From: Acidimicrobiia bacterium
GTDB lineage: Bacteria > Actinomycetota > Acidimicrobiia > IMCC26256 > JAENVU01
Direction: 5' to 3'
NCBI GenBank assembly: GCA_031422675.1
Contig: JANPMG010000041.1
Coordinates: 7,166-71,165, forward strand
DNA: 64,000 nucleotides
The notes under the pieces were generated by a model. It ran no database searches. It saw only the letters and a program-made list of their open reading frames with translations, and was not told the origin of the DNA. Below are positions 15,268 to 62,003 of this stretch, piece after piece; the first letter of the stretch is position 1, and each line of letters starts with the position of its first letter. The translations under genes were made by a program, and so were the position numbers.

Positions 15268-16911
15268 CTACCCGCGCGCCTCGGCCCGGAGCAAGCCATA
15301 GACGATCGAATCCGAGAGCGCCTGCCAACTTGCCTCGATGATGTTCTCGCTGACGCCGATGGTGGTCCAGGTCTCCTCACCGTCGGTGCTGTCGAGCAAT
15401 ACGCGCGTGATCGCGCCGGTCCCGTGTTGGGTATCGAGCACGCGCACCTTGTAATCGGTGAGGTGCAGCCGGTCCAGGGCGGGATACCGGCCCGCGAGCG
15501 CGGTCCGCAGCGCGCGGTCGAGCGCGTTGACGGGTCCGTTGCCCTCCGCAGTGGCAATCGAACGAACGTCACCCACATAGATCTTGATCGTCGCCTCGGT
15601 GAGCACACCATCGGGGCTCTCGCCCGCGGTGGTGGTGGGACTCGCGTCGTCGGTGATCACCCGGAACGACTCCACCCGGAACCAACCCGGTTCCCACCCG
15701 GAGGCACGACGCATCAGCAGTTCGAGGGACGCGTCGGCCACCTCGAAGTGATACCCCTCGTGCTCGAGATGCTTGAGCGTGTCCACCACCTGGTTGACGG
15801 TGGGACCGTCGAGTTCGAGGCCGAGTTCACGCGCCTTGAGTTCGATGGTGGATCGACCCGCCAGCTCGGACATCACGAAACGCGTGCCGTTGCCGACGAT
15901 GTCCGGTGGGATGTGCTCATACGCGTCCGGCCGCTTGATGATCGCGCTGACGTGCAAGCCGGCCTTGTGCGCGAACGCCGAGGAACCGACGTACGCGGCC
16001 TGCGGGTTCAGGGACATGTTGACCAGCTCGGCCACATGGTGAGCCACGGGCGTGAGTCGCTCCATGCGTTCGGGCGGCAACGTCTCGATCCCCATCTTCA
16101 GCGTGAGGTTCGGGATGATCGTGGTGAGGTTGCAGTTTCCGGTGCGTTCGCCGTACCCGTTGATGGTGCCCTGGACCTGGGTGGCACCGCCCCGAACCCC
16201 GGCGAGCGCGTTGGCGACGCCGCAACCGGTGTCGTCGTGCAGGTGGACGCCCACCTGGACGTCGGCCCCCACGTACTCGACCACCGATCGGACGGTGGCT
16301 TCCACGTCGTGCGGCAGGCTCCCACCGTTCGTGTCACACAGCACGAGGCAGTCGGCGCCCGCCTGTACCGCGCCTTCGAGCACCCGCAGGCTGAACTCGG
16401 GGTTGGCGGCGAACCCGTCGAAGAAGTGCTCGGCATCGAAGTGGACCTCACGTCCGAGATCCTTCAGGTACGCAATCGAATCCGAGACCATGAGTACGCC
16501 TTCGTCGAGCGTGGTGTCGAGGGCTTCGAGCACGTGGTAGTCCCAGCACTTGCCCACGATGCAGACCGTCGCGGTGTTGGCGTCGACGAGATGGCGCAGC
16601 GTGTCGTCGGAGTCGACCTTGCCCTTCTTCCGGCGGGTCATCCCGAAGGCGACGAGGGTGCTCGTCTCGAGCTGGAGCTCGGCCTGGGCGCGGCGAAAGA
16701 ACTCGTCGTCCTTCGGGTTCGCGCCCGGCCACCCCGCTTCGATGTAGTGGACTCCCAACCAATCGAGCTGTTCGGCAATGCGCAGCTTGTCGTCGACGGT
16801 CAGTGAGATGCCCTCGAGCTGCGAACCGTCGCGCAGAGTGGTGTCATAGATCTCGACGCGCGCCGGGAGGCCCGGCGCTCGCACTTTCCCTCTCCGCTCA
16901 TTCGTCGACAT
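15268..16911 (-). CDS. cimA: citramalate synthase / LeuA-family alpha-keto-acid condensing enzyme
   Basis: IYDTTLRDGSQLEGISLTVDDKLRIAEQLDWLGVHYIEAGWPGANPKDDEFF is the CimA-type (TIGR00977-like) N-terminus, and a LeuA-dimer-like C-terminus is present. I chose the ATG at 16911. Confidence 0.8.
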   Translation of the reverse strand: MSTNERRGKVRAPGLPARVEIYDTTLRDGSQLEGISLTVDDKLRIAEQLDWLGVHYIEAGWPGANPKDDEFFRRAQAELQLETSTLVAFGMTRRKKGKVDSDDTLRHLVDANTATVCIVGKCWDYHVLEALDTTLDEGVLMVSDSIAYLKDLGREVHFDAEHFFDGFAANPEFSLRVLEGAVQAGADCLVLCDTNGGSLPHDVEATVRSVVEYVGADVQVGVHLHDDTGCGVANALAGVRGGATQVQGTINGYGERTGNCNLTTIIPNLTLKMGIETLPPERMERLTPVAHHVAELVNMSLNPQAAYVGSSAFAHKAGLHVSAIIKRPDAYEHIPPDIVGNGTRFVMSELAGRSTIELKARELGLELDGPTVNQVVDTLKHLEHEGYHFEVADASLELLMRRASGWEPGWFRVESFRVITDDASPTTTAGESPDGVLTEATIKIYVGDVRSIATAEGNGPVNALDRALRTALAGRYPALDRLHLTDYKVRVLDTQHGTGAITRVLLDSTDGEETWTTIGVSENIIEASWQALSDSIVYGLLRAEARG

Positions 16912-17818
16912 GCTCACACCAGTTCTTGTAGGTGTCGGTCTGGCCACGCACGGCTTTCGCGTACTCGGCCGCGATCAGTTCGGTGATCGGTCCGGGGCAC
17001 GGGATCGCCCGGTCGTCGACGGAGTTGACCGCGCTCACCTCCGCGGCGGTCCCACAGACGAACATCTCCTCGGCGACGTAGAGATCGCTGCGGGTGAGTT
17101 GGTCCACCCGGACGTCGATCCCGTGATCGCGCGCGATCGTCATCACCGAATCCTGGGTGATGCCCTCCAACGCGCCGGCCGAGATCGGCGGCGTCACGAG
17201 CACCCCGTTGCGCGCCACGAAGATGTTCTCGCCCGTGCACTCGCTCACGTATCCGTCGAGGTTGAGCATGATCGCTTCGTCGTAGCCGGCCTTCAGCGCT
17301 TCGACCTTGGCGAGCGACGAGTTCACGTAGTTCCCGGTGGTCTTGGACGCGGGCGGCATGACGTTGTGGTCGTGACGGGCCCACGAGCTGATCTTCATGC
17401 GCACCCCCTTCGACGCCGCGTCGTCACCGAGGTAGGCACCCCACGGCCAGCAGGCGACCGAGACGTCGACCGAGCACGGCAGTGTGTTGAGTCCCATCTC
17501 GCCGTACCCGTAGTACGCGATCGGCCGCAGGTAACAGCTCGGCAACCCCGACGCCCGGACGGTGTCCTTGCACGCCTGCACCAGATCGTCCACCGAGTAC
17601 GGGATCTCCATCATCAGAATTTTCGCGGAGTTGAACAGTCGCTCGATGTGCTCGGTGAGCCGGAAGATGGCCGGGCCGCGATCGGTCTCGTACGCGCGGA
17701 TGCCCTCGAACACTCCGGTGCCGTAGTGGAGCGAGTGGGTGAGGACGTGAATGCGCGCGTCGTCCCACGGGACGAGCGAGCCGTTCATCCAGATCTCGTT
17801 GGTCGATTCGATTGGCAT
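16898..17818 (-). CDS. ilvE: branched-chain amino acid aminotransferase (class IV)
   Basis: 306 aa with GVFEG.RAY, YLRP and LEGITR motifs. Confidence 0.95.
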   Translation of the reverse strand: MPIESTNEIWMNGSLVPWDDARIHVLTHSLHYGTGVFEGIRAYETDRGPAIFRLTEHIERLFNSAKILMMEIPYSVDDLVQACKDTVRASGLPSCYLRPIAYYGYGEMGLNTLPCSVDVSVACWPWGAYLGDDAASKGVRMKISSWARHDHNVMPPASKTTGNYVNSSLAKVEALKAGYDEAIMLNLDGYVSECTGENIFVARNGVLVTPPISAGALEGITQDSVMTIARDHGIDVRVDQLTRSDLYVAEEMFVCGTAAEVSAVNSVDDRAIPCPGPITELIAAEYAKAVRGQTDTYKNWCEHVDE

Positions 17819-17820
17819 GG

Positions 17821-18813
17821 CTAGACCCTTTCCGCGATCTGAGTACCGATCTCCGTTGTCGTACCGCGGAGTTCGTCGGACTTGGCAATGGCTTCGTGAA
17901 TGCGCGCCGCGGCGGCGCTCTCACCGAGGAACTCGAGCATCATCGCCGCGCTGATGATCGCGGCCCGGGGATCGGCGGCACCGGTGCCGGCGATGTCTGG
18001 CGCGGAACCGTGGACCGGCTCGAACAACGACGGCCCCGTGCGGGCCGGGTTCAGGTTCGCGGAGGCGGCGCGCCCGATGCCGCCACCGACGGCACCACCG
18101 AGGTCGGTGAGGATGTCGCCGAACAGATTGTCGGTGACGATCACGTCGTACTTCTCGGGCCGCTGGACGAAATGGATACAAGCCGCGTCCACGTGGTCGT
18201 AGCCGGTCGAGACGTCCGGATACTCCGCGGCCACGATGTCGAAGGTGCGCTGCCACAGGTCGCCGGCGAAGGTGAGCACGTTGGTCTTGTGCACGAGATG
18301 CAACCGCTTCGCCGTCCGGGTCTGCGCCAGGTCGAACGCGTAGCGGACGCAGCGTTCCACTCCCATCCGGGTGTTGACCGAGCCCTGGGTGGCGATCTCG
18401 TGGGGCGTGTCCTTGCGTAGGAACCCACCCTCCCCGGCGTAGGTCCCCTCGGTGTTCTCGCGCACCACGATCATGTCGACGCCGTCGTTCAACGCGCTCG
18501 GACCCGCGAGGAAGGGGCGATGGTTCACGTAGAGGTCGAGCCCGAATCGCATCTTCAACAACAGCCCGCGCTCGAGCACCCCCGGTGGCACCTCCGGTGT
18601 TCCCACCGCGCCGAGCAGGATCGCGTCGAGGCCGCGCAGCTCGTCGAGCACGGCATCCGGGAGCACCTCGCCGGTCGCCAGGTAGCGGACGCCACCGAGG
18701 TCGTAGTCGACCCGGTCGTAGGCCACGCCCGTGGCATCGACGACGTCCAGCGCGGCCGCAATGACCTCCGGTCCGATGCCGTCACCACCGATGATGCCGA
18801 TCCGATGACTCAT
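17821..18813 (-). CDS. leuB: 3-isopropylmalate dehydrogenase
   Basis: [22 protein letters not shown] and GSAPDIAG motifs. 330 aa, the short actinobacterial type. Confidence 0.95.
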
Positions 18814-18833
18814 GAAAAAAGAACTCCTGATAA

Positions 18834-18860
18834 CGAAAAACCGCCCACCGAAGTGGACGG
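18834..18860 (-). terminator. Intrinsic terminator CCGUCCAC-UUCG-GUGGGCGG followed by UUUUU, 20 nt upstream of the leuB ATG
   Basis: 8-bp stem (one G-U pair), UUCG tetraloop and a U5 tract read on the minus strand. No upstream same-strand gene exists for it to terminate. Confidence 0.7.
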
Positions 18861-18864
18861 TCGA

Positions 18865-18891
18865 GAGCGAACGCCGAGGCGGCGTTCGCTC
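18865..18891 (-). promoter_or_regulatory. Perfect 12-bp hairpin (GAGCGAACGCCG-CCU-CGGCGUUCGCUC) overlapping the leader-peptide stop codon
   Basis: Read directly. The 5' arm starts inside the UGA of the mini-ORF. Confidence 0.6.
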
Positions 18892-18922
18892 AGGGAATGA
18901 CGACGATGAGGTGTGAGCACAT
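18890..18922 (-). CDS. candidate BCAA leader peptide [10 protein letters not shown]
   Basis: ATG TGC TCA CAC CTC ATC GVC-type run: CTC ATC GTC GTC ATT gives 5 consecutive Leu/Ile/Val codons out of 10. It sits upstream of leuB-ilvE-cimA with a hairpin and terminator downstream, and a TAATCT -10-like hexamer at 18938-18933. Confidence 0.5.
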
Positions 18923-19014
18923 GGAACTTTTGAGATTAGCAGTCCGACGCCGAAACCGCCCGGAGTTCACCGGCAACCCGAGCCGATCGGGGGTCGACGG
19001 GTACCCTCGACCCG

Positions 19015-19485
19015 ATGGAACCCGTCCAACTGTCTGCCCCCGCCCACGAACGGCTGGTCGCCGAACTCGCGCATCGGAGCGGTCCCCTGCGGTTCGAGAT
19101 CGCCGAACGAATCGAGCGGGCCCGTGAACTCGGCGACCTGAAGGAGAACGCCGACTACGACGCGGCGAAGAACGAACAAGGCTTGAACGAGGCGCGGGTG
19201 CGCCAGCTGGAGGCGATGCTCCGGGATGCCGAGATCGTGGAGTCGGCATCGGGCGACGTCGTCGAAGCCGGCACGATCGTGGAGATCCGGATCGGCGGCG
19301 ACGCCGAAACCCAGTCCTATCTCATCGGCTCCATCGAAGAACGCAACGACGACTACGACGTCCTGTCCACCAGCTCGCCGCTGGGCCAGGCGCTCATCGG
19401 TCGCCGGGTCGGCGAGCGCGCCACCTACGAGACGCCGCGCAAAGCCGAACTCGGCGTGGAAGTCGTCAGCATCCGGCCCCTCTGA
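19015..19485 (+). CDS. greA: transcription elongation factor GreA
   Basis: The sequence ARELGDLKENADYDAAKNEQG is the GreA coiled-coil signature. 156 aa. Confidence 0.95.
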   Translation: MEPVQLSAPAHERLVAELAHRSGPLRFEIAERIERARELGDLKENADYDAAKNEQGLNEARVRQLEAMLRDAEIVESASGDVVEAGTIVEIRIGGDAETQSYLIGSIEERNDDYDVLSTSSPLGQALIGRRVGERATYETPRKAELGVEVVSIRPL

Positions 19486-19612
19486 CCGGTAAAGGGTCTC
19501 GGTCCGAAACGGGTCGCATCGACGCCGCATCACCGGTTTCGACACCGGCCCCTGCCGCGGGCGACATCTAGGCTGAACGGCCCCGCCGGCATCCGAGGAG
19601 TGAGTCACGGGC

Positions 19613-21028
19613 ATGGGTCAAACGCTGAGCGAGAAGGTCTGGGAACGCCACGTCGTACGCCGGACCGCCGGTGAGCCGGACCTGCTGTACATCGACCTGC
19701 ACCTGATCCACGAGGTCACGTCACCGCAGGCGTTCGACGGCCTCCGATTGGCGGGGCGGCCGGTGCGCCGGCCCGAGCTGACGGTGGCCACGATGGACCA
19801 CAACGTGCCGACCGCCGGCCTCGAACTCGGCATCACGGACCCGATCTCTCGCAAACAGATCGAGGTCCTCGACGCGAACTGCGACGAGTTCGGGATCCGG
19901 CTCTACGGAATGGGCGACGCCGGGCAGGGCATCGTCCACATCATCGGACCCGAACAGGGCCTCACGCAGCCGGGCATGACCATCGTCTGCGGCGACAGCC
20001 ACACCTCCACCCACGGGGCGTTCGGCGCGTTGGCCTTCGGGATCGGGACCAGCGAAGTGGAGCACGTCCTGGCTACCCAGACGCTGACCCAGACGAAGCC
20101 GGGCACCATGGCCATCACCGTCGACGGCGAGCTGCCCGCGGGTGTGACCGCGAAGGATCTCGTGCTCGCGATCATCGAGCGCATCGGCACCGGCGGCGGG
20201 ATCGGTTCTGTCATCGAGTACCGCGGTGCGGCGATTCGCGCGTTGTCGATGGAAGGCCGGATGACGGTCTGCAACATGTCGATCGAAGCCGGGGCGCGCG
20301 CCGGTCTGATCGCCCCGGACGAGACCACGTTCGAATACCTGAAGGGCCGTCCGTTCGCACCGGCCGGAGCCGAGTGGGATGCCGCCGTCGCCGATTGGCG
20401 TTCGCTCGTCACCGACGACGACGCCGCGTTCGATCAGGAGGTGATCATCGACGCGAGTTCCCTTGCCCCGTACGTCACCTGGGGGACGAACCCGGCCCAG
20501 AGCGTGACCATCGCGGACACCGTCCCCGACCCTTCCGACTTCGAGTCCGCGAGCGAACGCGAGTCCGCCACCCGGGCGCTGCAATACATGGGCTTGAAGG
20601 CCGGCACCCCGATGCGAGCCATCGAGGTGGACACCGTGTTCATCGGTTCGTGCACGAACGCGCGTATCGAAGACCTGCGCGCCGCGGCAGCCGTTGCGAA
20701 GGGCCGGCGGGTGCGCGACGGCGTGCGGACGCTGGTGGTCCCCGGATCTTTCGCGGTCAAGGCCCAGGCGATTGCGGAGGGATTGGACTCCATCTTCACC
20801 GACGCCGGCTTCGACTGGCGCGAACCCGGATGCTCCATGTGCCTGGCGATGAATCCCGACAAGCTCGCGGCGGGCGAGCGGTGCGCGAGCACGAGCAACC
20901 GGAACTTCGAAGGTCGCCAGGGTCAAGGCGGACGCACCCATCTGGTCTCGCCCGAGGTGGCCGCGGCGACGGCGATCGCCGGTCACTTCGCGACCCCGGC
21001 GGACCTCCTCGAGAGTCAGGATGCGTGA
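19613..21028 (+). CDS. leuC: 3-isopropylmalate dehydratase large subunit
   Basis: [13 protein letters not shown]...[14 protein letters not shown]...VCGDSHT...[11 protein letters not shown]...CSMCLAMN are aconitase-family LeuC motifs. Confidence 0.97.
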
Positions 21029-61220: not shown

Positions 61221-62003
61221 TCAGTCGTCGTTCGAATCCCCGCTGCGGCCCGAACCCGAACCACTCGAACCCGAACCACTCGAGTCGTCGTCGTCGCTGT
61301 CGGAGTCATCAGCGTCGTCATCGGAATCGTCATCGGGTGACGACGTGGGCGACGTACCCGGGCCGTCGTCGTCGGCGGAGTCATCGGAGTCGGAATCGTC
61401 GTCGGAATCGTCGTCACCATGGGTCGACCCGGGTCCGGAGTTGTCCTGACCGTGGTCGTCGTTGTCCTCGGCGTCGTCGATTCCGTCACCGCCCGGCGTC
61501 GAACCGGGGACGGCGGAATCGGTGGCCAGTGTGGTGGTCGTGGTGGCCGGATCGTCGGACCGGCGGTCTTCGCCCGTGTCGTCCGATCCGGTGTCGTCCG
61601 AGTCGGTGGAGTTCTCGTCGGTGTCGTCGTCCGGGACGTCCAACCCCACGCGTGCGAGCGTGCTGTGGGCCACTCGCTGCACGGGACCCGGCAGGTTGCC
61701 GGTCGCGGCGGCGGCGCCCGACGCGCCGATGAGGATCACTCCGGCCGCGGCCGCGGCCTTCATGGTGAGCAACTTTCCGATCATGGGGGACCTCCGTTGA
61801 CGGGACGGGCCGGATTGGTCCGTCGCTCGGCGTGCGACTCGGGCGAGTGCTTCGAAATCCATCTCGGGCACCGGCCCCGGAACGGCAGCCGCGGCAAGCA
61901 CCGAGGCGACTGCTCCGTATCCCGGTGGCGCGTCCGGCGCCGGTACCGCTCCGGAGAGCAGGCGTTCGGCGGTGCCGGCATCGAGGAAGTCGTCGTGAGT
62001 CAT
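61221..62003 (-). CDS. single-pass membrane protein with an extremely Asp/Ser-rich C-terminal region; putative anti-sigma factor
   Basis: There is a 4-nt overlap with the upstream ECF sigma gene. A TM helix (KAAAAAGVILIGASGAAAA) is followed by about 150 aa dominated by D, S, G and T. Confidence 0.65.
   Translation of the reverse strand: MTHDDFLDAGTAERLLSGAVPAPDAPPGYGAVASVLAAAAVPGPVPEMDFEALARVARRATDQSGPSRQRRSPMIGKLLTMKAAAAAGVILIGASGAAAATGNLPGPVQRVAHSTLARVGLDVPDDDTDENSTDSDDTGSDDTGEDRRSDDPATTTTTLATDSAVPGSTPGGDGIDDAEDNDDHGQDNSGPGSTHGDDDSDDDSDSDDSADDDGPGTSPTSSPDDDSDDDADDSDSDDDDSSGSGSSGSGSGRSGDSNDD

Follow-up and report, generated by a model that had tools for sequence, protein, structure and literature searches.

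A conserved isoleucine/valine leader upstream of leuB-ilvE-cimA in Acidimicrobiia is probably a ribosome-mediated transcription attenuator

We describe a leader element in a 64-kb stretch of DNA from an Acidimicrobiia bacterium (contig JANPMG010000041.1; the whole analyzed stretch is called the window below), where it lies on the minus strand directly upstream of leuB, ilvE, and cimA. It consists of a short open reading frame (ORF; here the mini-ORF) whose last codons specify mainly isoleucine and valine, a hairpin (H1) into which the stop codon of the mini-ORF is built, and a second hairpin (T) with the form of an intrinsic terminator. The element is real and conserved, being known from ~170 loci in total, all of them in uncultured carriers, and comparison of these sequences indicates that it is very probably functional. 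The explanation that we favor and consider probable is that it acts as a ribosome-mediated transcription attenuator, which would sense charged tRNA-Ile and tRNA-Val and thereby control leuB-ilvE-cimA. Such control would be of a known kind, differing from described cases in its operon, its lineage, its sequence, a sensor made up of Ile and Val codons only, and the missing antiterminator.

RESULTS

Anatomy of the leader in the window

18941-18933, minus strand: extended -10-like element TGC-TAATCT (TAATCT at 18938-18933), ending 10 nt before the mini-ORF ATG
18922-18890, minus strand: leader mini-ORF, 10 codons plus TGA, without a Shine-Dalgarno site
18907-18896, minus strand: sensor codons ATC GTC GTC ATT (Ile-Val-Val-Ile), positions -5 to -2 from the stop
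18891-18865, minus strand: hairpin H1, a perfect 12-bp stem with a CCU loop
18864-18861, minus strand: H1-T linker TCGA
18862-18832, minus strand: intrinsic-terminator hairpin T plus U-run
18828-18824, minus strand: leuB ribosome-binding site AGGAG
18910-18833, minus strand: conserved element, as delimited by covariance model R1 (85.6 bits, E = 1e-25)

The mini-ORF reads ATG (18922-18920) TGC TCA CAC CTC ATC GTC GTC ATT CCC TGA (18892-18890) and contains five Leu/Ile/Val codons in a row (18910-18896). The GA of its stop codon forms the first two bases of the H1 stem, the arms of which, GAGCGAACGCCG (18891-18880) and CGGCGTTCGCTC (18876-18865), enclose the loop CCT. The core of T, CCGTCCAC/TTCG/GTGGGCGG at 18860-18841, has 8 pairs, including one U.G, and reaches 10 pairs when the GA of the linker pairs with the first two U; in this extended form, GACCGUCCAC-UUCG-GUGGGCGGUU (18862-18839), the first two U of the 3' arm overlap the U-run. 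The U-run, UUUUUCGUU at 18840-18832, comprises TTTTT (18840-18836) and then CGTT to 18832; with its interrupted tail, the corresponding DNA is TTTTTCGTT (18840-18832). A terminator pattern scan flagged 18862-18839 as a 10-pair terminator-like site, and the fold of the 130-nt region consists of exactly H1 and T (-44.6 kcal/mol, z = -4.84), with none of 200 shuffles being as stable. A strict sigma-70 scan found no promoter.

This anatomy agrees closely with the original prediction for this DNA, in which a leader-peptide attenuator had been proposed from a reading of the sequence. The mini-ORF with its five consecutive branched-chain codons was borne out base by base, and both sequence and fold support the placing of the UGA in a perfect 12-bp hairpin, with a terminator after a 4-nt linker. 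The AGGAG site, the distance of 109 nt between the mini-ORF ATG and the leuB ATG at 18813, and the TAATCT located 10 nt upstream were likewise correct. For the terminator, predicted at 18860-18834, the stem, the UUCG loop, and the five U residues stood, whereas the end at 18834 was slightly off, as the U-run extends to 18836 and its tail to 18832.

The minimum-free-energy fold for the window also paired the 9 nt before the mini-ORF ATG (18923-18931) with the leuB ribosome-binding region (18815-18827). This pairing was set aside: it was not seen in relatives, and transcription probably starts downstream of its 5' partner.

Conservation and exclusive association with leuB

Relatives were gathered by a LeuB scan with one genome per species, which returned 80 loci, all from Acidimicrobiia or unclassified Actinomycetota metagenome-assembled genomes, with LeuB identities of 64-87%. 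A profile of 43 sequences (alignment A1) was applied to the stretches before leuB in 79 relatives and located the element in 61 of them. A covariance model (R1) gave a single strong match per locus, always just before leuB and with scores of 21-91 bits, and these matches include ~16 loci that had been left out of model building; the only strong match in the window is that at 18833-18910. An independent metagenome scan for the sequence of T yielded 120 contigs, 114 of them with the full element, and leuB lies downstream in 107 of the 107 contigs with enough downstream DNA. Three exceptional metagenome matches to T were rejected as chance terminator look-alikes in unrelated AT-rich DNA.

The same architecture recurs throughout: a promoter-like box, a mini-ORF that starts with ATG or GTG and ends in V-I-V-I-x, a stop codon fused to H1, then T and a T-rich tail. 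The consensus of H1 in relatives is uAGCGCACGCC-loop-GGCGUGCGCU, followed by a short linker ending in GA, and that of T is CCGUCCAC-loop-GUGGGCGG. A second copy of the module before other genes, which would have pointed to a regulon, was found neither in the 64-kb window nor in the 3-kb flanks of the 80 loci. A loose second match to CCGTCC-N-GGCGGT in the window (61488-61513, minus strand) most likely reflects chance, as 22 of 100 shuffles give at least two such matches and the covariance model does not match there.

Known RNA families do not account for the element. An Rfam 15 scan of the window gave only two tRNAs above the gathering score, and at 18700-19100 the best matches were to small RNA models, through the terminator alone, with 17-20 bits against gathering scores of 35-52; apart from this terminator-only resemblance, no family matched at E = 0.08 or better, the amino-acid leader families (Leu_leader, Thr_leader, His_leader, Trp_leader, and others) included. 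The subthreshold matches (suhB/mmgR, isrB, anti-hemB, and Hrs13), which align to T only, were discarded, as was T-box or riboswitch control, for which there was no Rfam match and which a conserved core of only ~78 nt, made of two simple hairpins with variable loops, does not suggest. A literature search found no description of this leuB leader element.

Codon-level selection in the mini-ORF

A mini-ORF with an in-frame start, ending at the base of H1, is present in all 59 full genome elements, mostly with a length of 10-17 codons, and in the 114 metagenome copies. The original prediction had staked itself on the conservation of a mini-ORF rich in branched-chain codons among relatives, and this conservation proved strong. 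Codons were counted back from the stop in 57 distinct genome leaders, and a larger set comprised 137 distinct leaders. Among the 57, Ile or Val occupies position -5 in 51-52 leaders, position -4 in 42, position -3 in 52-53, and position -2 in 51-53 (Ile in 50), corresponding to 74-93% of leaders, and in 127 of the 137 at least three of these four sensor positions are Ile or Val; for comparison, the Ile and Val contents of LeuB are 4.5% and 9.9%. In the 57 leaders the residues at -1 and from -8 to -6 are not branched-chain ones, Leu is nearly absent, and the other two reading frames of these leaders have no comparable Ile/Val pattern.

The choice among synonymous codons is also distinctive. ATT stands at position -2 in 41 of the 57 leaders but makes up 5.5% of the Ile codons in the adjacent leuB genes, and GTA accounts for 32.5% of leader Val codons compared with 2.4% in leuB; these two rare codons are enriched 13-fold over leuB. 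In the 137 leaders, the third base of A-T-N codons is a pyrimidine in 287 cases and a purine in none, so that neither ATA nor ATG occurs, whereas that of G-T-N codons is a pyrimidine in 100 cases and a purine in 89 (Fisher p = 2e-43, a value that overstates independence, the leaders being related, although the exclusion of ATA and ATG is total). Because a purine is barred from the third position of A-T-N codons yet common in G-T-N codons, selection acts here on codons and not on the RNA. The sensor therefore appears to be one for Ile and Val, with the consensus V-I-V-I-x-stop, and the Leu codon of the window would lie outside it. In this respect the Leu/Ile/Val sensor of the original prediction stood for Ile and Val and failed for Leu, the codon for which is not conserved.

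The mini-ORF had also been predicted to be nearly leaderless, and its surroundings support this. A Shine-Dalgarno-like site is found at 2-4 of 58 mini-ORF starts, compared with 41-49 of 58 for leuB. In 44 of 57 leaders the mini-ORF start follows a hexamer of the TAnnnT or ACACT type at a distance of 6-10 nt. In the closest relatives this hexamer takes the form TGCTAnnnT, 8-10 nt before the start, and in distant relatives the mini-ORF is often preceded by TTGAC-17 nt-(G/C)ACACT. The position of the -10 element predicts a 5' untranslated region of a few nucleotides. Together with the missing Shine-Dalgarno sites, it agrees with leaderless or near-leaderless initiation, which is frequent in Actinobacteria (PMC4633059). 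At the other end of the mini-ORF, the stop codon is UAG in 118 of the 137 distinct leaders, compared with ~24% of the stops of long ORFs from the same loci (that in the window is UGA), and Pro is the final residue in about one third of leaders.

Pairing and geometry of H1 and T

In A1, 95.4% of cells are paired, compared with 34-52% in slid controls, and compensatory changes occur at 10 pairs; none of 500 shuffles did as well. H1 shows changes on both sides in 8 of its 11 pairs in this alignment, with 92.5% of cells paired. In T, 98.6% of cells are paired and 2 of 10 pairs have changed on both sides (A-U to G-C and A-U to C-G), while at the wobble pair U.G gives way in some loci to U-A or C-G. 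CCGUCC/GGGCGG, the lower stem of T, is near-invariant over the ~170 loci, the only variants being these replacements of the U.G pair, whereas H1 covaries freely. The T-rich tail after T is conserved in genomes rich in GC.

The geometry is fixed as well. The stop codon begins -3 to +1 nt from the base of the H1 stem in all loci, and the spacing between H1 and CCGUCC is 5-6 nt in 113 of 152 loci, the last 2 of these nucleotides pairing inside T. The length of the H1 loop, in comparison, varies from 3 to 12 nt. G.U pairs are found only on the leuB-sense strand. Because these pairs are strand specific and the loop lengths variable, the constraint is on RNA and not on a DNA operator.

Seven loci (L011, L014, L015, L018, L026, L029, and L037) carry an insertion of 10-20 nt that lengthens the upper stem of T, for example CCGTCCACTCCG...CGGGGTCGGACGG; they keep the lower stem and the U-run.

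Operon and neighboring genes

18813-17821, minus strand: leuB, 3-isopropylmalate dehydrogenase, first gene of the operon (NF002898, 479 bits; cut-off 393)
17818-16898, minus strand: ilvE, branched-chain amino acid aminotransferase (NF005146, 426 bits; cut-off 279)
~16947-15268, minus strand: cimA, citramalate synthase (TIGR00977, 679 bits; cut-off 450; match from residue 31)
14881-13280, minus strand: gltX, downstream of cimA
13193-13121, minus strand: tRNA-Gln(CTG), just downstream of gltX
13091-13017, minus strand: tRNA-Glu(CTC), just downstream of gltX
19015-19485, plus strand: Gre-factor-like gene, 156 aa, divergent from the leader and directly upstream of leuC
19613-21028, plus strand: leuC

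The names leuB, ilvE, and cimA, already assigned in the original prediction, are backed by NCBIfam matches above the curated cut-offs. The start of ilvE lies 2 nt past the leuB stop, which suggests translational coupling. The true start of cimA is probably further downstream than listed, because the listed ORF overlaps ilvE by 50 nt (16898-16947) and the family match begins at residue 31. Gene order is well preserved: in 121 of 124 loci the gene immediately after leuB is ilvE, and in 98 of 108 cimA comes after ilvE. In the citramalate route, CimA, LeuCD, and LeuB turn pyruvate into 2-oxobutanoate, and IlvE completes isoleucine; given these roles of CimA, LeuB, and IlvE, leuB-ilvE-cimA is an isoleucine branch.

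The divergent greA that had been predicted upstream is present as a Gre-factor-like gene. Its matches fall just under the NCBIfam GreA cut-offs (130 compared with 161 bits and 129 compared with 139 bits), and a homolog divergently adjoins leuB in 95 of 156 loci. The gene may encode the housekeeping GreA or a paralog linked to the attenuator. On reading, no comparable leader was seen in the region upstream of leuC (19486-19612).

DISCUSSION

A probable Ile/Val leader-peptide attenuator

The findings fit a transcription attenuator in several respects. A short ORF rich in Ile and Val codons is present, and a sequence with the features of an intrinsic terminator lies between this leader ORF and the first structural gene. 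The U-run of T is separated from the leuB ATG by 22 nt in the window, and T lies 17-209 nt from leuB in other loci. Because the 22-nt gap leaves no room for a promoter, leuB has to be transcribed through T, which calls for some conditional read-through. The conservation of the U-rich tail suggests that T does terminate transcription.

We infer that the transcript begins only a few nucleotides upstream of the mini-ORF ATG and that a 70S ribosome initiates there without a Shine-Dalgarno site. By default, H1 and T would both fold, and RNA polymerase would halt in the U-run at ~18836-18832, giving a leader RNA of ~90 nt. When Ile and Val are plentiful, the ribosome would pass codons 6-9, unzip H1 as far as the buried stop codon, and depart; T would then form and leuB would be off. 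When Ile-tRNA or Val-tRNA is scarce, the ribosome would park on codons -5 to -2, often the rare AUU and GUA, termination at T would be suppressed, and the operon would be transcribed.

How stalling might be coupled to antitermination can be addressed only tentatively; our best guess is a spacer switch. Ribosomes open an mRNA duplex ~11-13 nt from the first P-site base, equivalent to 7-9 nt from the first A-site base, and the work of Takyar (2005) and Qu (2011) reportedly gives the ribosome a reach on mRNA of ~7-9 nt beyond the first A-site base in the 3' direction. When one of codons -5 to -2 occupies the A site, the ribosome entry just reaches the base of closed H1, so that the sensor codons are the last four at which H1 is still closed; with the ribosome on codon -1 and the stop codon, H1 would be progressively unzipped. 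In a spacer switch, closed H1 together with the parked ribosome would hold the base of T 3-4 nt from an obstacle, and the lower stem of T could then not be completed inside the polymerase exit channel. A ribosome 2-3 codons further on would unzip H1 and provide ~25 nt of flexible slack, allowing T to form.

Features that would tune the timing of such a switch are the lower stem of T with its near-invariance, the preference for UAG, and the Pro that often ends the peptide. The UAG bias and the final Pro would fit a terminating ribosome that dwells with H1 open, among other possible explanations. In a subvariant, closed H1 alone would suffice, so that the operon would be expressed unless translation shut it off. 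That antitermination proceeds without any alternative RNA pairing, with H1 as a ribosome-operated spacer switch, is a proposal we regard as rather doubtful.

Evidence that weighs against attenuation, and other explanations

Several observations weigh against the attenuator or against its proposed mechanism. An antiterminator that excludes T and is favored on stalling, the defining part of a classical attenuator, was not found in ribosome-masked folds, a consensus fold, or a shuffle test. When the ribosome footprint was masked at each position (RNAfold, 45 loci), T still formed in nearly all loci; RNAalifold gave no consensus structure with the 5' arm of H1 and the 3' arm of T masked; and pairing between the 3' arm of H1 and the 5' arm of T scored no higher than in controls in which an arm had been shuffled (mean z = +0.37). 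These failures are consistent with the original prediction, the author of which could not resolve an antiterminator by eye. We know of no precedent for the spacer-switch step, and classical attenuators terminate efficiently while their protector hairpin is closed. The element is absent from 18 of the 79 relatives. Three loci retain T with its T-rich tail, 19-25 nt before leuB, without mini-ORF or H1 (L064, ~2805-2873; L074, ~1245-1312; L060, ~2903-2984), which implies that T is leaky or has a role of its own. Lastly, leader-codon mutations in ilvB of Streptomyces coelicolor did not affect regulation (as reported in PMC1262725), showing that look-alike leaders are not always attenuators.

In the loci that have T only, T directly follows the promoter; in L064 and L074 the start of a greA-like gene is only ~75 nt away.

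The same Ile/Val attenuator could operate in the canonical manner if the 3' arm of H1, freed by the stalled ribosome, bound the 5' arm of T through GGCG-CGUC and some further pairs and so formed a weak, kinetically trapped antiterminator. The tetramers do repeat in the classical order, CGCC and GGCG in the 5' and 3' arms of H1 and CGUC and GGCG in those of T, and while the 3' arm of T is still to be transcribed, masking the whole 5' arm of H1 gives a structure of -2 to -9 kcal/mol in which roughly half of the 5' arm of T is paired. This weak pairing, however, needs the whole 5' arm of H1 to be covered, which places the ribosome on the stop codon or the sense codon just before it and not on the Ile/Val codons; an A site at -3 or -2 gives a mean arm-pairing probability of only 0.12-0.33. 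As the pairing is also missing from the consensus fold, does not exceed its shuffled control, and loses to T at equilibrium in nearly all loci, we judge a canonical antiterminator unlikely. It is improbable, too, that T is a constitutive leaky terminator or 5' stem-loop, with the ribosome and hairpins acting posttranscriptionally, for example against 5'-end-dependent decay. Such a role would suit the three loci in which T alone stands right after the promoter, the lack of an antiterminator, and a mini-ORF at the extreme 5' end of the predicted transcript, and stalled ribosomes are known to stabilize ermC and ermA mRNA through the erm leader 5' stabilizers. It would leave unexplained the stop codon fused to H1 and the fixed spacing between H1 and T, and the conserved U-rich tail speaks for termination.

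The contrast between the lower stem of T, which including its U.G pair is almost invariant in ~170 loci, and the freely covarying H1 could mean that an RNA-binding protein or other trans-acting factor recognizes this stem, with the mini-ORF synchronizing ribosome and polymerase or being secondary. The persistence of T without a leader in three loci would agree with this, but no candidate protein is encoded nearby, the sole conserved neighbor being the Gre-factor-like gene, and the codon-level selection for Ile and Val would go unexplained; we think such a factor very improbable. Almost no credence can be given to the idea that a dimeric transcription factor uses the inverted repeats as DNA operators and that the mini-ORF is incidental. 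Both hairpins are near-palindromes in the DNA between promoter and leuB, but on the opposite strand their G.U pairs (GGAC/GTTC in H1, CCGTCC/GGGCGG in T) would turn into A.C mismatches, and loop lengths of 3-12 nt in H1 and of up to ~20 nt in extended forms of T break the half-site spacing. Neither the compensatory changes in H1 nor the selection on codons would be expected of an operator.

Comparison with known leaders

Leader ORFs rich in branched-chain codons and followed by terminators control ilvB in other Actinobacteria (PMC1262725, PMC10272879, PMC13236596). Branched-chain leader peptides with terminators are found in the ilvB leaders of Corynebacterium, Mycobacterium, and Streptomyces (PMC1262725); an ilvB-II motif and a three-hairpin attenuator are described for Corynebacterium (PMC10272879, PMC11857589), and the terminated leader RNA of the M. 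tuberculosis ilvB1 attenuator is ~120 nt long (PMC13236596). The leuB element resembles these leaders in its short ORF rich in Ile and Val (and, in those, Leu), its first hairpin, and its U-tailed terminator before a branched-chain amino acid operon. For C. glutamicum, leader translation without a Shine-Dalgarno site has been reported. Unlike them, it precedes leuB-ilvE-cimA and not ilvBNC, belongs to the class Acidimicrobiia, has a sensor of Ile and Val without Leu codons, and shows no sequence or Rfam match. The ORF of the ilvB leaders overlaps P1 or the terminator, and their models include an antiterminator formed by the P1 loop and the 3' side of P2a, whereas the leuB mini-ORF extends only to the base of H1, the H1 loop has 3-7 nt and is variable, and no antiterminator was found. 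A pairing of the H1 loop with the 3' arm of T, as in the Corynebacterium ilvB-II motif, was considered and rejected: although C makes up 57% of the loops, they vary in sequence, and 84 of 152 have a length of just 3-4 nt.

The enterobacterial attenuators (trp, his, leu, thr, ilvGMEDA, and ilvBN) share with the leuB element regulatory codons, a protector-like hairpin, a terminator, and the use of rare codons; the E. coli leu leader, for instance, carries rare CUA codons. They differ in their mutually exclusive 1:2, 2:3, and 3:4 pairings, of which the 2:3 pairing is absent here, and in having a Shine-Dalgarno site and longer peptides. The likeness to Corynebacterium and enteric attenuators noted in the original prediction thus holds for the leader ORF and terminator and breaks down at the antiterminator pairing.

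Leaderless short ORFs of another kind, the polycysteine ORFs, have been described in mycobacteria (bioRxiv 10.1101/834739; Mol Microbiol 2020). They too are short actinobacterial ORFs with sensor codons at the 3' end and a biosynthesis operon downstream. Their action, however, is translational, the Cys-codon tract pairing with the Shine-Dalgarno site of the next gene, and they have no terminator, whereas the leuB element has a conserved, U-tailed one at a variable distance (17-209 nt) from leuB. The masked consensus fold gave no conserved partner for the Ile/Val tract, in contrast to what a translational attenuator of the polycysteine type would show.

The closest precedent for a spacer switch is pyrBI of E. 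coli, in which the terminator hairpin is physically obstructed by a ribosome that follows closely; there, the leader ORF extends through the terminator and polymerase pausing at low UTP provides the signal. As proposed here for leuB, antitermination at pyrBI comes about by steric action of the ribosome, without an antiterminator helix. The mini-ORF of the leuB leader, unlike that of pyrBI, stops ~30 nt before T, a gap that the hairpin would have to bridge.

Significance

With ~170 copies, one in each locus, the element is a well-supported addition to the cis-regulators of a large actinobacterial class that is mostly uncultured and in which almost nothing is known of gene regulation. It would tie the citramalate route (cimA, leuB, and ilvE) to the sensing of Ile and Val and supports the assignment of these genes as the isoleucine branch. 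As a natural case of a leader peptide and a terminator without an antiterminator, and with its size of ~110 nt, fixed geometry, and rich natural variation, it is suited to asking how stalling might block termination without refolding. Should the mechanism turn out to be an ordinary one, such as a weak kinetic antiterminator, the element would still represent a new RNA family worth a covariance model.

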